DNA from: an uncultured Acidobacteriota bacterium
GTDB taxonomy: Bacteria; Acidobacteriota; Thermoanaerobaculia; Multivoradales; SZUA-115
Direction of reading: 5' to 3'
NCBI GenBank assembly: GCA_963805975.1
Contig: CAWDVR010000001.1
Coordinates: 832,001-896,000, forward strand
DNA: 64,000 bases
In this document: piece after piece, positions 23,070-40,565 of the stretch
How positions within the stretch are numbered: the first letter of the stretch is position 1
Layout of the letters: each line of letters begins with the position of its first letter
The notes under the pieces: model-generated
What the model was told of the DNA's origin: nothing
What the model saw: only the letters and a program-made list of their open reading frames with translations
The model's database searches: none
Made by a program: the position numbers and the translations under genes

Positions 23070-24382
23070 AGGGCGGCGCCTTCCTCGCCGTCGGCCTGCC
23101 GGGCAAGGTGCTGGAACCGGAGAACGCTCGGCTCCTCACCCGGCTCGAGCCCGGCGGCGTCATCCTGCTGCCGCGCAACATCGAGGACGCCGGCCAGCTC
23201 GGGGAGCTCACGGCGTCGGTCCGCCGTGTGGTACCCGAAACGCTCCTCTACCTCGACGCCGAGGGGGGGAGGGTGGACCGCCTGCGCAACGTCCTGGGCC
23301 CGGCGCCCGGCGGCGACGTGCTGGCGAGGAACCCTCCTCGCCTGGCGGCGCGCGCCGGCCGTTGGGTGGGCGCCGGCCTGCGGTGCTTCGGCTTCGACGT
23401 GGATCTCGCCCCGGTGGTGGATCTCGATCACGGCCTGGAGAGCAATGCCCTGGACCGGCGATACCTGGGAAGGGCGCCGCGCGGCGTGACCGCGCGGGCG
23501 CGGTCTTTCCTCGCCGGCCTGCACGCCGCGGGAGTGAGCGGCTGCCTCAAGCACTTTCCCGGCCTGGGCCGGGCCGGCGAGGACACCCACGACCAAGGGA
23601 CGGTGATCGCGGCGAGCGAAGCGGCCCTGGCGCTGGACCTCGAGCCCTTCCGCCGGCTGGCGGGGGAGGCGGGAGCGGTGATGGTCAACCACGCCGCCTA
23701 CCCTGCGATCGACCCCTCCGGCCTGCCGGCCAGCCTGTCGCGGGAGATCGTCTGGCACCTTCTGCGGCGCCGCACCGGCTTCCGCGGCCTCGCGCTCTCG
23801 GACGACCTCGACATGCACGCCCTCGACCCCTGGGGGAACGCCGCCGAGCGCGCCGAGGCCAGCTTCGCGGCCGGCTGCGACGTGGTCTTCCTCTGCCAGT
23901 CCCCGGACGCCGCGCTGGAGGCGGCCCGCCGGCTCGGCCGTCCCGGGCTCGAGGCGCGCCGCGAGGAGGCGACGCGCCGGCTCGCGGCCTACCGGCGGCG
24001 GCTTGCGAGGTTGCGAAAGGCGGCCAGGCGGCGACGACCCGGAAGAAGTCATCCGCCGCCTGGCTTCCTTGCAGTAGCTCAGTGCCCCGAAGTCCTGGAC
24101 CCACTCGGTTCCGGCCCGTTGAAGTCCACCCAGGCGGTACCCACGTCGTACCCCCAGTCGAGCACCCCGGAGGTGTACGAAGGCCCGAAATCCGTACCCG
24201 CCGAGACCATGCACTCGAGGCGGCTCGACACGAAGTTCTCGTCCCCCACCCGCCGGCAGAAGTCCGCCCGGTGGTCGCCGTCGAAGTCCGTCCAGGCAAA
24301 CCCTTCAGGCCGCCCCCACTCGCGCACCTCACCCCTGGCGTTGGTCGTGCCCTCAGCGAAACCTCCGCCGGTTGACAAGTAG
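23066..24382 (+). CDS. nagZ: Beta-N-acetylhexosaminidase (GH3) with anomalous C-terminal extension
   Basis: GTGA overlap with mutS; DAEGGRVDRL, DLAPVVD, KHFPGLG..DTH, LSDDLDM; last ~100 codons overlap the opposite-strand gene. Confidence 0.88.
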   Translation: MKGGAFLAVGLPGKVLEPENARLLTRLEPGGVILLPRNIEDAGQLGELTASVRRVVPETLLYLDAEGGRVDRLRNVLGPAPGGDVLARNPPRLAARAGRWVGAGLRCFGFDVDLAPVVDLDHGLESNALDRRYLGRAPRGVTARARSFLAGLHAAGVSGCLKHFPGLGRAGEDTHDQGTVIAASEAALALDLEPFRRLAGEAGAVMVNHAAYPAIDPSGLPASLSREIVWHLLRRRTGFRGLALSDDLDMHALDPWGNAAERAEASFAAGCDVVFLCQSPDAALEAARRLGRPGLEARREEATRRLAAYRRRLARLRKAARRRRPGRSHPPPGFLAVAQCPEVLDPLGSGPLKSTQAVPTSYPQSSTPEVYEGPKSVPAETMHSRRLDTKFSSPTRRQKSARWSPSKSVQANPSGRPHSRTSPLALVVPSAKPPPVDK

Positions 24383-25395
24383 CAGACGACGAGCCGTACT
24401 CCTTGCCCAATCGGCGTGCAGTAGTCCGCCCGGCCATCGGCGTTCTGATCGGCCCATGCGCCCGGAAAGTACGTGGGATTGGGTTCGATCACCCCGGAGG
24501 TGAAGGTGAGTCCGAAACCCGTGCCGGTCGAGAGGGTGCACGTTGCCCACGTCAATTGATCGCTCGAGACACTGTCCCGCCGGCAGTAGTCCGCTCGGCC
24601 GTCGGCATTGAAGTCCACCCAGCCGAAACCGATGTCGTATCCCCAGTCGATCACGTCGGAGTAGTAGCTGGGTCCGAAGCCCGTGCCCGTCGAGACCGTG
24701 CACGCGACGTAGCTCGACACATAGTTCTCATCCCCCACGCGCCGGCAGTAGTCGGCTCGGCCGTCGGCATTGAAGTCCGCCCAGCCGACACCCACGTCGT
24801 ATCCCCACTCGATCACGTCGGAGTAGTAGGTAGGTCCGAAGCCCGTGCCCGTCGAGACCGTGCACGCGACATAGCTCGACACGAAGTTCTCGTCCCCCAC
24901 TCGGCGGCAGTAGTCCGCCCGCCCATCGACATTGAAGTCCACCCAGGCGACGCCCACGTCCAGTCCCCAGTCGATCACGTCGGAATAGTAGGTGGGCCCG
25001 AAGCCCGTGCCCTTCGAGACCGTGCATGCGACATAGCTCGACACGAAGTTCTCGTCCCCCACGCGCCGGCAGTAGTCCGCCCGGCGGTCGCCGTCGAAGT
25101 CCACCCAGGCGACGCCCACGTCTTGTCCCCAGTCGATCACGTCGGAGTAGTAGGTCAGTCCGAAGCCCGTGCCCTTCGAGACCGTGCACGCGATATGGCT
25201 CGACACGAAGTTCTCGTCCCCCACCCGCCGGCAGTAGTCCGCCCTGCTGACGAGGCCCGGCTGTGCATTGGCTGCTTGCGGCGGTGCAATACCGAAGGCG
25301 AGCAGCGCTCCGAAAGCCGCGGCAGCGGCGCGAAGGATGCGTTGGCGCAGGCTGCTCCCCAGCTCGTGCGCCCCATCATGGCTCTTGATCAACAT
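24079..25395 (-). CDS. Secreted FG-GAP/VCBS-like 7-repeat beta-propeller protein
   Basis: AAAGGAG SD before ATG 25395; signal peptide; seven ~54-aa repeats RADYC...C...WxDFxxDG. Confidence 0.85.
   Translation of the reverse strand: MLIKSHDGAHELGSSLRQRILRAAAAAFGALLAFGIAPPQAANAQPGLVSRADYCRRVGDENFVSSHIACTVSKGTGFGLTYYSDVIDWGQDVGVAWVDFDGDRRADYCRRVGDENFVSSYVACTVSKGTGFGPTYYSDVIDWGLDVGVAWVDFNVDGRADYCRRVGDENFVSSYVACTVSTGTGFGPTYYSDVIEWGYDVGVGWADFNADGRADYCRRVGDENYVSSYVACTVSTGTGFGPSYYSDVIDWGYDIGFGWVDFNADGRADYCRRDSVSSDQLTWATCTLSTGTGFGLTFTSGVIEPNPTYFPGAWADQNADGRADYCTPIGQGVRLVVCYLSTGGGFAEGTTNARGEVREWGRPEGFAWTDFDGDHRADFCRRVGDENFVSSRLECMVSAGTDFGPSYTSGVLDWGYDVGTAWVDFNGPEPSGSRTSGH
24115..25245 (-). repeat. Intragenic tandem repeat, unit about 162 bp, 7 copies (first four near-identical)
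   Basis: Recurring TCGACACGAAGTTCTCGTCCCCCAC and CCCCAGTCGATCACGTCGGA at 162-bp spacing. Confidence 0.9.
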
Positions 25396-25751
25396 GGGCT
25401 TCTCCTTTCCACAGCGTCGCAGTTGTTTGTTCTGCCCAGAGGGCACTCGTGCGGGCTCGGATCACTCTCGAGCCTTGATGAGCAACTGCCGGCAGCGGGC
25501 GCTCTATCTCACTTGGGAGCAGCCCCGGCGCTGCTCGGGGGACTCACCCTCAACACCGAGTGCACCGGATTGAGCGGCGCGCGGCGCGCTCTGTAACGAG
25601 CCGCCGCGGGTAGCGCCCAATTCGATCGTTCGACCAGCTCCCTCGAAAACGCACGGCAGAGGCCGGCGCTTTCCTGGGAGCGCGGCAACGCCAGTCTCAA
25701 ACCGGCCGCGCCCCGGCCCCGGGGCCAGCGGCGTCCGAAGGAGGTTCTTCT

Positions 25752-26318
25752 ATGTCTGGTCGAGGACAGGTTGCAGCGTCTCTCTTGGCCCTCGCCGCCC
25801 TTGCGCTGCCGGCGAGCGCTTCGACGTTCCTCGCTCTCTCCCACCAGGAGCTGGCCGCAGAGGCCGGTGCGGTGGTGGAGGCGCGGGTGATCGCCGTGCG
25901 GTCGTTCTGGAACGCGGAGCGCACTGTGATCGTGACCGAGGCGCGGCTGGCCGTGGACGACGTGGTGGCCGGCGACGCGGCGCGGGATCTGGTGGTGCGC
26001 ACCTTCGGCGGCACGGTGGCCGGCTACACCATCCAGGCGCACGGTTTCCCGACTTTCCGCACCGGCGAGCGCCAGCTTCTCTACCTGGTGCAGGAGCCGA
26101 AAGACGGCAGCGTCCGCGTGCTCGGCTACCAGCAGGGCCAGTACCGGATCGTGACCGGCGACGACGGCGTCGAGAAGGCGGTCCCGGCGGTGGGAGAGGG
26201 CGCCCGCTTCGTCACCCGCGACGGCCGGCCCGCTCCGGCCGCCGAGGTCGTGTCGCTCGCAGAGCTCAAACAACAGATCCGCGACGGCGCTCGAGGTGTC
26301 GAGCGCCCGGCGGCCTAA
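25752..26318 (+). CDS. Secreted hypothetical protein (propeptide-like partner of matrixin)
   Basis: GGAGG SD; signal ending ASA; STFLALSHQEL, FGGTVAGY, GFPTFRTGE. Confidence 0.75.
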   Translation: MSGRGQVAASLLALAALALPASASTFLALSHQELAAEAGAVVEARVIAVRSFWNAERTVIVTEARLAVDDVVAGDAARDLVVRTFGGTVAGYTIQAHGFPTFRTGERQLLYLVQEPKDGSVRVLGYQQGQYRIVTGDDGVEKAVPAVGEGARFVTRDGRPAPAAEVVSLAELKQQIRDGARGVERPAA

Positions 26319-26341
26319 GCCCCGCGGCAAGGAAGGAACCG

Positions 26342-27304
26342 ATGATGACTACGAACGCGCTCCTGCGCTCCTCCCTGGCGGCGGTGCTCGGCTTCGTCCT
26401 GGCAGCCGGCGCCTCGGCCTACGTGCTCCTGTCCCCGGCCCGCACCTGGAACGGCCCTCCCAACTACATCGTGGACAGCGGCGGCCTGGCATCCGTCCTC
26501 GACGGCAACGGTGGGCTGACTCGCACCCTCAACGCCATCACCAGCTCGGCAGCTTGGAACGGCGCCGGCTCGGCGACCGTGCTCACCGCCAGCTCCGGCT
26601 CGACCGCCGGCATCGCGCTCGGCGACGGCGTCCCCATGCTGCGCTTCAGCGACCCGTTCGCGGCCTGCACCGGCACCTGTCTCGCCGCCACCTTCACCGG
26701 CTACTACAGCCTGCGCGGCGGCACCTCCTACCAGATCGACGACGCGGACATCGTCACCAACTCGACGGGCTACAACTGGACCTCGCAGGGGGAGGACCCG
26801 GGCGGCGTGGGCTGCGCGAGCGAGATCTACGTCGAGGGTGTGATGGTGCACGAGGTCGGCCACGCGCTCGGCCTCGGCCACACCGGGGTCGCCGGCGCCA
26901 CCATGGCGTCCTCGGTGTCCTACTGCAACAACAACCCGGCGACCACCGAGGCCGACGACGAGAGCGGTCTCGTGGCCCTCTACGGCAGCGCGCCCTGCAC
27001 CGGCTGCGCGGTGTACACCAACTACCTCTCCGGTACCGGCGTGACCCACTACGAGCCGCTCAACACCTACTATTTCAGCGCCGCCGCGGGCACCCACCAG
27101 GGCTTCCTGGTCGGTCCCGCGGGCACCGACTTCGACCTCTATCTCTGGAAGTGGAACGGTTCGGCGTGGGCTGTGGTGGCGAGCGCCACCACAGCCTCGT
27201 CGACCGAGACCATCAGCTACGCCGGCACCTCGGGCTACTACCTGTTCGGCGCCTACTCCTACAGCGGCGCCGGCCAGTATCACTTCTGGCTCAAGAAGCC
27301 GTAG
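26342..27304 (+). CDS. Matrixin-family (metzincin) zinc metalloprotease with C-terminal PPC-like domain
   Basis: HEVGHALGLGH, Met-turn ATM, GTDFDLYLWKW. Confidence 0.9.
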   Translation: MMTTNALLRSSLAAVLGFVLAAGASAYVLLSPARTWNGPPNYIVDSGGLASVLDGNGGLTRTLNAITSSAAWNGAGSATVLTASSGSTAGIALGDGVPMLRFSDPFAACTGTCLAATFTGYYSLRGGTSYQIDDADIVTNSTGYNWTSQGEDPGGVGCASEIYVEGVMVHEVGHALGLGHTGVAGATMASSVSYCNNNPATTEADDESGLVALYGSAPCTGCAVYTNYLSGTGVTHYEPLNTYYFSAAAGTHQGFLVGPAGTDFDLYLWKWNGSAWAVVASATTASSTETISYAGTSGYYLFGAYSYSGAGQYHFWLKKP

Positions 27305-30883: not shown

Positions 30884-31594
30884 TCAGCCGCCGGGAGCGG
30901 GTGTCGTGCTCGGAGGTGCAGCAGAGTCGGGCGCGCCTGCGCCACGGCTGTGCTCCGCGAGCCAGGCCTCCACCTCCTCGGGATGGAAGCCGAAGGGGCC
31001 CGGCTCGCCCTTGTAGGCGATCCGGCCGTCCGCGCCGATGATGTAGAAGCGCTCCGGCCAGCCCGCGTAGAGCTTCTCCACCTGATTGTCGATGTCGTCG
31101 ACGCCGAAGGGCAGGGTGTAGTCGAAGCGCTTCACGAAGTCGTTGGCGATGACCAGGCGGTCGGCCAGGGTCTTGGGTTGGCGGTAGCACACGTCCTCCT
31201 TCTCGTTGGAGGTCATCTGCCACTCGTCGAGCGGATGGGCTTCCTTGATGTAGACGGTGAGGAAGCTCGCCGTGTCCCGATACTTCGCTTGCATCTCTTC
31301 CAGGCGCTCGACCGAGCGCCGGAAGGGCGGTCAGGTGAAGCTGCCGAAGACCAGCACCAGCGGCTGAGTGCCGATCCGATCGGCCAGGCGCACGGTCGCT
31401 TCGCCGTCGAGGGCCCTGAGCACGCCGTCCGGCGCCAGGTCCCCGACCTTGAGGTCTCCCTCCCGGCGCTGGTCGTAGAGCAGCATGCCGATGACGTTGC
31501 GCGGGCCGATCTTCATCACCATGTAGCCGGCCGCGAGGAGCACCAGCCCCAGCACGGAGAGCAGGATCCGCTTGGCGAGAACGACTTTCCTCAT
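30884..31594 (-). CDS. Iodothyronine-deiodinase-like selenoprotein (UGA=Sec at 31331-31333), 236 aa
   Basis: The two track ORFs are in frame across a TGA: PLVLVFGSFT-U-PPF...YIKEAHPLDEW...WPERFYII...YKGEPGPFGF; N-terminal TM helix; GGAGG SD. Confidence 0.88.
31297..31325 (-). promoter_or_regulatory. Bacterial SECIS-like hairpin
   Basis: mRNA UGA-CCGCC-CUUCC-GGCGCUC-GGUC-GAGCGCC-U-GGAAG; apical loop starts 17 nt after the UGA. Confidence 0.72.
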
Positions 31595-31791
31595 GCCACC
31601 TCCCGGGTCGTCGGGCGAGCGTAGAGCCTCGCCGCCGCGGGTGCAAGATGCCGACCAGCGGCAGCATTGCCGGAGCGCCGGGATCTTGCCCTGCATCGGC
31701 CTTGCAGGAGGCCGTGTGATCCGCGAACGCTCATAGAACCCATGCATCGGCTGCGGTCGCCGCCACCGGCCGGGCGAGATAAAGTCTGCGC

Positions 31792-40490: not shown

Positions 40491-40565
40491 TGGGGAGTGG
40501 CCAAGCGGTAAGGCAGCGGACTTTGGATCCGCCAACCGTAGGTTCGAATCCTACCTCCCCAGCCA
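40491..40565 (+). tRNA. tRNA-Gln(TTG)
   Basis: TGGGGAG acceptor, GCCAAGCGGTAAGGC D-arm, GCGGA-CTTTGGA-TCCGC anticodon arm, GGTTCGAATCC, 3' CCA; usual position before prs. Confidence 0.96.

Follow-up and report, generated by a model that had tools for sequence, protein, structure and literature searches.

The gene on the minus strand of the window (the whole 64,000-nucleotide stretch of DNA analysed here) encodes a selenoprotein in which an in-frame UGA is very likely, indeed nearly certainly, read as selenocysteine 88 (Sec88). It adds a member to the bacterial deiodinase-like selenoprotein family (PF00837). This family was described in 2005 by Zhang, Fomenko and Gladyshev, who found both Sec and Cys forms and suggested a redox role (PMC1088965); Sec-containing genes of this kind had indeed been reported in bacteria, as an earlier note on this DNA had said. 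It is also listed in reviews of 2022 (PMC9312934) and 2026 (PMC13188914), the latter calling the functions of such proteins largely uncharacterised. The product is predicted to be a membrane-anchored deiodinase-fold enzyme, most likely stripping iodine or bromine from halogenated aromatics, a functional reading that is put forward tentatively and at somewhat less than even odds.

The ORFs 31331-31747 and 30884-31294 lie in the same minus-strand frame, joined by a TGA and 12 sense codons as the earlier note had described; all of its coordinates check, and the strand is an addition. From 31594 to 30884 the frame reads through as a single protein of 236 aa with the TGA at the deiodinase catalytic position. 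On the forward strand this TGA appears as TCA at 31331-31333, and the ATG at 31294 follows it after 36 nt, the 12 sense codons. Translated through the TGA, the product is MRKVVLAKR-ILLSVLGLVLLAAGYMVM-...-QPLVLVFGSFT-U-PPFRRSVERLEEMQ...YIKEAHPLDEW...LYAGWPERFYII...YKGEPGPFGF. The start codon is likely ATG 31594 rather than ATG 31747; a start at 31747 was rejected, as it has no orthologue support and a Shine-Dalgarno-like site stands at 31598-31603. A promoter scan at the locus gave 0 sites and a single terminator-like match at chance level. This gene is the only PF00837 match in its genome. The features are as follows.

30884..31594, minus strand: full coding sequence of the deiodinase-like selenoprotein, 236 aa; ATG at 31594, stop TGA at 30886-30884
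31598..31603, minus strand: Shine-Dalgarno-like GGAGGT, 3 nt upstream of the ATG; orthologue starts lie at a similar distance from the UGA
31514..31567, minus strand: predicted N-terminal membrane anchor, residues 10-27; uncharged 18-residue run, AF2 helix 2-29
31472..31507, minus strand: conserved linker helix GPRNVIGMLLYD, residues 30-41; motif in 84/84 orthologues, AF2 helix 31-40
31331..31333, minus strand: in-frame UGA, predicted Sec88 (Dio3 Sec170), from the frame, the Dio3 alignment and orthologue conservation
31303..31320, minus strand: predicted bacterial SECIS core GGCGCUC-GGUC-GAGCGCC; loop start 17 nt after the UGA, fold reaching about 31297-31325
31175..31252, minus strand: deiodinase insertion or omega loop, Y115-P140 (YIKEAHPLDEW...VCYRQP), from the alignment; residue roles in PMC7506546 and PMC11592359
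31187..31189, minus strand: Cys136, invariant loop cysteine (84/84 orthologues), putative resolving Cys
31049..31060, minus strand: W-P-E-R 179-182; Pro180 at the Dio3 Phe258 column, Glu181/Arg182 equivalent to Dio3 Glu259/Arg260

In the genome (G000, 96% complete), selA (E 3e-160), selB (E 3e-106) and selD (E 2e-75) each score above their TIGRFAM cut-off, and a tRNA-Sec carries the anticodon UCA (71 bits against a cut-off of 47); selA, selB, selC and selD, which the earlier note had named as the genes to look for, are all four present. A scan of GTDB gave 566 relatives among 582 pattern matches, and the best 80 of these 566 were used together with seven further loci. TGA stands at the catalytic column in 87/87 of the resulting orthologue loci, of which 84 are distinct, this gene among them; one locus is identical to that of the same-genus relative G001. 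Most of the best 80 are from Thermoanaerobaculia or Acidobacteriota; a few are Planctomycetota and one is from Pseudomonadota. SelB is over its cut-off in 5/5 orthologue-bearing genomes checked, and selA, present in 39/40 relatives, is uninformative as a test of co-occurrence. A sister lineage has four distinct TGC/TGT forms (L107, L108, L110 and L111) and one TGG form at the same column, which supplies the Cys/UGA pairing that had been sought at this position. Contigs from three other public runs (X1, X2 and X6), representing related strains and not reads of this genome, span the codon, and among the differences listed, only three rows, no other letter is given at 31331-31333; the TGC or TGT that a misread codon would have concealed does not appear there.

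It is highly improbable that the locus is a pseudogene, two separate genes, or a gene whose UGA is read as Trp or Cys under an altered code. Gene callers do give two ORFs, and a genuine TGG (Trp) variant, L116, occurs in the sister lineage, but the same stop codon occupies the catalytic column in 84/84 distinct orthologues, both halves of the gene are conserved among them at 55-72% identity, and the SECIS element covaries (see below). RF2 is present and TGA terminates 3/8 neighbouring genes checked, and therefore the code is standard; the tRNA-Sec is the sole tRNA with a UCA anticodon. Sequencing error or a pseudogene was rejected on the orthologues and the contigs of the other runs, and an altered code on RF2, the TGA-ended neighbours and the single UCA-anticodon tRNA.

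Downstream of the UGA a 7-bp stem is capped by GGUC, with the loop starting 17 nt after the UGA (-12.9 kcal/mol; z -2.26 over 100 nt), and agrees with the published description of a bSECIS (PMC13188914). The hairpin on its own is weak evidence in a genome of 70% GC, where 428 of 3000 random TGAs (14%) are also accepted by a simple bSECIS rule; a stricter rule (GG loop, at most -13 kcal/mol) is passed by 6/3000 and narrowly missed by this gene at -12.9. In an alignment of 82 distinct rows, which include non-independent kin and from which the structure was itself derived, 86.8% of cells pair against 77.6% in shuffled alignments, both-sided changes in the stem number 34 cells against 7.9, and covariation is 0.216 against 0.059 (slid controls at most 0.045). 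Two of the five pair measures, both counts of pairs, failed to exceed the shuffles (216 and 52 of 500). Two of the compensations in the stem carry over into the amino acid sequence: RSVER to RAVAR (SVE to AVA) replaces U-A by G-C, and RSVER to RSVDR (VE to VD) replaces C-G by G-C. The Cys-codon (TGC/TGT) homologues have lost the hairpin, with a GG loop in 0/4. For a bias towards the serine codon TCG (76/77 against 2%), the background comes mostly from a single AGC column. The selenoprotein reading is made because the Sec machinery, the UGA conservation (84/84), the Cys-codon homologues at the same column and the covarying SECIS agree, and the earlier claim of a true selenoprotein is to that extent upheld by the sequences.

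The sister clade does not share the same hairpin register, 5/5 pairs being found in 1/65. By eye, the post-UGA hairpin of its metagenomic members L112-L185 seems shifted by 3-4 nt (for example GAGGUA-GGC-UACCUC), an apparent second SECIS register within the deiodinase-like family. L116, with TGG at the catalytic codon, has lost both Cys136 and the hairpin and is likely an inactive or repurposed copy; it illustrates that a database W at the catalytic column can be genuine instead of a misread UGA. Two further selenoprotein genes were noted in this genome. One, of the SelW/Rdx family (L287:305-535 minus; G000:C3, TGA near 622798), carries a C-V-V-U motif, scores 57.9 bits against 34.2 for TIGR02174 and has a GG-loop hairpin 21 nt downstream. 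The other is AhpD-like (L288:255-812 minus; G000:C3, TGA near 209341, about 14 kb from selA), with a C-Q-Y-U motif and 107.9 bits against 81.8 for TIGR01926. SelD itself (L004; G000:C5:432085-433011 minus) is a Cys form (CGGCAAK) that terminates a 797-aa open frame and is probably fused to an N-terminal domain.

The predicted fold is that of the deiodinases. The protein matches Pfam T4_deiodinase (PF00837) at 123 bits against a cut-off of 27, and mouse Dio3 (E 2e-22) and Dio2 (E 6e-20) at 31-33% identity, with U88 on the catalytic Cys/Sec column. In an AF2 model built from 103 sequences (pLDDT 89.9, pTM 0.81), helices at residues 2-29 (N-terminal) and 31-40 accompany a Trx/Prx core; confidence is lowest in the omega loop (pLDDT 63 at residues 121-130). 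Among known structures the model is closest to Dio3 (Z 22.3, with an rmsd of 3.2 A for 175 aligned residues), followed by a thiol-disulfide reductase (Z 16.8), with peroxiredoxins also at 16.8 or below; Foldseek likewise places Dio3 and Dio2 as the top two.

Dio3 residues are numbered here by counting along the alignment from Sec170, which reproduces the published loop-D 201-217 (PMC7506546). All 84 distinct orthologues keep, as Dio3/this protein, Ser167/S85, Thr169/T87, Tyr197/Y115, Glu200/E118, His202/H120, Trp207/W125, Glu259/E181 and Arg260/R182; residues termed essential in the Dio papers are invariant in 84/84. The protein resembles vertebrate DIO1-3 (mouse Dio3 4TR3/4TR4, Dio2 9H48) in its anchor-linker-core layout, its S-x-T-U-P-P-F motif, the Y..EAH..D.W insertion, the ER and GP motifs and the Trx/Prx fold. 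Unlike DIO1-3, it has Pro140 at the His219 column (in 84/84 orthologues), Pro180 at the Phe258 column and mostly Pro or Thr among orthologues at the Arg275 clamp; the proximal and distal cysteines are missing and Cys136 is added. The Cys168 column holds Phe or Tyr, and no equivalent of the distal Cys239 was found at 159-162 in the 84 orthologues. That Phe replaces the proximal Cys here, and that Dio2 also lacks this Cys, had been said before and is right both by the Dio alignment and by PMC11592359. A further difference from DIO1-3 is that the SECIS lies within the coding region.

The His219 equivalent and the distal Cys are described as conserved in all three DIO isoenzymes (PMC9141512), and the gene is not classed as DIO1-3 because both are missing and its activity is a prediction from sequence. 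Loss of the His219 equivalent is not disqualifying, because in human DIO1 the H174A variant retains activity, although H174Q is inactive (PMC9141512). The family model NCBIfam NF038285 (deiodinase_rel) matches the C-terminal domain with E 1e-60, but the score of 206 bits falls below the cut-off of 250 and covers positions 177-339 of 347, the N-terminal half of the model being missing here. Pro180 aligns with the proline of G-V-P-E-T in the thioredoxin-like protein 3kcm, which we take to be the canonical cis-Pro. Proline occurs at this column also in amphioxus and coral Dio-like proteins; the amphioxus protein P0216 (G-S-Y-T-C-P-P-F, F-P-D-R) shares in addition the aromatic residue at -2. The amphioxus and coral homologues differ in retaining the His219 equivalent (QH) and in having no Cys136.

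With the bacterial deiodinase-like selenoproteins the gene shares Sec at the deiodinase catalytic column, a bacterial SECIS and Cys homologues. Unlike the UxxC label in the review tables (PMC9312934, PMC13188914), this clade has U-P-P-F as in animals, in 84/84 orthologues. The UxxC forms (L026, L225, L279 and L280) are distant from this clade. UxxF was found in 46/49 bacterial TGA forms of one set, so the UxxC label seems not to define the family. Compared with the family as given in the text of the 2005 paper, the extras of this clade are the N-terminal anchor, the conserved linker helix and Cys136.

Cys136 is the only other cysteine of the protein and occupies the position of Dio3 Val215, where the omega loop has its neck. 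All 84 orthologues have it, as do 65/65 distinct TGA forms of the sister clade, and it is present in 0/5 non-TGA forms there (76 of 80 sister loci were parsed, and the remaining four have TGA with Cys136). The five non-TGA forms group as a single clade (support 100/100 where four of them, with P0004, entered the tree), and as these sequences are placed the joint loss of Cys136 and Sec is one event. Cys136 is kept in some catalytic-Cys database proteins (P0002, P0014 and P0104). Among 89 other bacterial Sec forms the second cysteine lies at +57 to +66 in 58, at +48 (the Cys136 position) in 13 and elsewhere in 12, with none in six. A role for Cys136 as a substitute resolving residue for the missing Dio cysteines is plausible. 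A separate bacterial Sec clade (L258-L270, from the phylum of G431) keeps the His219 equivalent (QH) and has its second Cys at +65.

The N-terminal transmembrane helix proposed in the earlier note corresponds to the uncharged run at residues 10-27, and a run of at least 14 residues occurs in 82/84 orthologues. The hydrophobic run is preceded by four K/R and followed by two, and it is likely that the N-terminus lies inside with the catalytic domain in the periplasm, in contrast to the vertebrate Dios, which face the cytoplasm (PMC8143656). The periplasm-facing orientation suggested earlier has moderate support: the four-to-two count agrees with it, but K/R flank counts across the orthologues split 34/24/24, which leaves the topology ambiguous. 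A DsbD-type gene elsewhere in the genome is under the NF001419 cut-off and over that of PF02683.

Animal Dios abstract iodine as I+ with their selenolate, which then returns to the reduced state by way of a selenenylsulfide (PMC11592359), and animal Dios are reported to debrominate PBDEs (PMC7144113). By homology the following steps are proposed. SelB would bind the GGUC-capped hairpin and insert Sec88, and the N-terminal helix would hold the protein in the membrane, its N-terminus likely inside and its catalytic domain periplasmic. A halophenol-type substrate would then be bound by His120 and Trp125 of the omega loop and lose its halogen as X+ to the Sec88 selenolate, with a proton coming from the Thr87-Glu118 network or from pocket water. 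Cys136 might resolve the selenenyl halide to a selenenylsulfide, the proximal and distal Dio cysteines being absent, and a DsbD-fed thiol partner could re-reduce it. No bacterial member with an activity assay was found in the mostly open-access literature.

The wide spread of the family, its multiple copies per genome and its EF-hand and TPR fusions fit a general redox role and so speak against the dehalogenase reading. One such role would be that of a peroxiredoxin-like envelope peroxidase, in which Sec88 of the same selenoprotein would act as the reductant of hydroperoxides or hypohalous oxidants and the selenenic acid would be resolved by Cys136. This is possible though rather doubtful. In atypical 2-Cys Prx subfamilies the position of the second Cys varies, and the clade-specific second Cys found here at varying positions is similar; BCP, AhpE and Tpx are structural matches at Z 15-16.6, and the distribution is wide with no pathway context. 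The Dio core is a Prx-like Trx fold (PMC11592359), and a redox role was what the 2005 paper proposed (PMC1088965). Set against this, AhpC-TSA (23.6 against 26 bits) and Redoxin (23.7 against 26.6) both stay under their Pfam cut-offs, the Dio-specific insertion and pocket residues are all retained, and Dio3 stands 5.5 Z above the next structural row. Dehalogenation of halo-aromatics is, on this comparison, slightly favoured over a peroxidase-like role.

It is unlikely that the product is a membrane-anchored thiol-disulfide oxidoreductase of the TlpA/ResA type with envelope proteins as its substrates. The N-terminal anchor and GDLAPD start are as in ResA-type proteins, SdbA, DsbE and ResA are structural matches at Z 16-17, and Pro180 aligns with the 3kcm proline, but the match to PRK03147 is weak (24.5 against 170 bits), no CxxC or UxxC is present where U-P-P-F is universal among the orthologues, and the same proline is found in the amphioxus and coral Dio-like proteins. 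In Dio3 a large omega loop borders the active site (PMC7506546), which also argues against a TlpA/ResA-type enzyme.

The relationship of the deiodinase-fold dehalogenase proposed here to animal deiodinases was examined in unrooted trees (IQ-TREE, LG+C20) of about 175 core columns, with two named animal rows, amphioxus P0216 and coral P0247, and with no vertebrate DIO. In four IQ-TREE trees the two animal rows and several unnamed long-branch proteins fall inside one clade with the Cys136 group. Support for this nesting is SH 97 in a quick run on 74 rows and 98/94 in a careful run on the same 74; with the top PF00837 matches from two further phyla included (99 rows) it is SH 91, and in a hand-chosen subset of 53 of these 99 it is 100/97. 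The groups were named after the trees were seen, the bacterial sampling began from the query gene, and the trees contain long branches and some rows of odd composition. AU tests reject a grouping of the animal-like rows with the QH bacteria, the clade that keeps the His (p 0.0095), and, marginally, a grouping of the Cys136 bacteria with their nearest bacterial neighbours that excludes the eukaryote-like rows (p 0.034). FastTree places the two animal rows just outside the Cys136 clade with negligible support (0.17). The Cys136 clade may be the nearest bacterial relative of animal deiodinases; the trees have no root and therefore no donor can be named.

A search for further eukaryotic relatives gave only seven proteins, none with an organism name. 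The proteins P0163, P0208, P0218, P0222, P0229 and P0248 have long branches and W at the Sec column, and derive mostly from contigs of about 1 kb; most have no N-terminal anchor and several have Cys136. They fall between the Cys136 clade and the animals and may be protist selenoproteins. No study of deiodinase origin was found in the mostly open-access literature; the tree in the 2005 paper (PMC1088965) may bear on the subject. Dictyostelium has a Sec deiodinase homologue and no thyroid hormone (PMC2375036), and an amphioxus Cys enzyme, either P0216 or another, is reported to deiodinate TRIAC (PMC8143656); on the amphioxus primary paper and on Dictyostelium Dio3 function, nothing directly relevant was found in the mostly open-access literature.

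As a gene it is an ordinary case of mis-annotation: the family has hundreds of members split at the UGA, as the relatives in the GTDB scan indicate. A profile search gave 7788 representatives at E up to 0.001, redoxins included, and 110 of the best 120 database hits have no G-S-x-T-x-P-P motif and are C-terminal halves, so the expectation that standard annotation splits such genes was correct. PF00837 occurs in 50/401 genomes of Acidobacteriota, where 42/48 matches over the cut-off have one TGA (a tally that includes G063), in 108/301 genomes of the phylum of G430 and in 38/301 of that of G431, and the bacterial deiodinase-like family is often present in several copies per genome. Among the top rows of the ESM Atlas, the Cys homologue P0002 as query retrieved PF00837 clusters only. 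The fused forms P0122-P0128 and P0138 include EF-hand + deiodinase and TPR + deiodinase arrangements, and also tandem double deiodinase-like domains whose active sites are degenerate.

What the clade makes testable is a well-supported SECIS, the resolving-Cys hypothesis and a phylogenetic hint towards animal deiodinases, and the natural Cys variants P0002 and P0004 could be expressed without Sec machinery. If the enzyme does dehalogenate, the chemistry of deiodinases is older than thyroid hormones and soil organohalogens may be among its targets. A bolder proposal, which taken as a whole is improbable, would make the Cys136 clade, with members in Acidobacteriota and other bacteria, the lineage from or beside which eukaryotic deiodinases arose, and its members real Se-dependent aromatic dehalogenases recycling via a loop Cys that was later replaced in animals by the proximal and distal Cys; their soluble domain would then serve as a model of how thyroid-hormone deiodination began, and they would represent an unrecognised soil organohalogen sink.

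The gene looks like a stand-alone unit. It is flanked by a divergent upstream gene for a TonB C-terminal domain protein and, downstream, by genes for a branching-type glycosyltransferase and a sulfatase-like protein. Neighbouring ORFs were called by a composition score with shadow ORFs retained; in two analyses the flanking genes cluster with none of 150 other loci, the sole shared item being an antisense shadow ORF. Lineage-level neighbours are an M20 peptidase, a two-component pair, an Nramp-like protein, an APC permease, alpha-2-macroglobulin, aconitase and a cold-shock protein, in clusters of at most 18 loci each, none conserved family-wide. No dehalogenation gene was found among the neighbour representatives scanned, which stand for 20 of the 45 clusters listed. 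Elsewhere in the window, 24079-25446 (minus strand) encodes a probably secreted protein with about six near-identical FG-GAP-like repeats (RADYCRRVGDENFVSS), 25752-27304 (plus strand) encodes a probable secreted protein with no Pfam hit and is followed by an M10 metallopeptidase, and a tRNA-Gln(UUG) lies at 40491-40565 (G000:C1:872491-872565).
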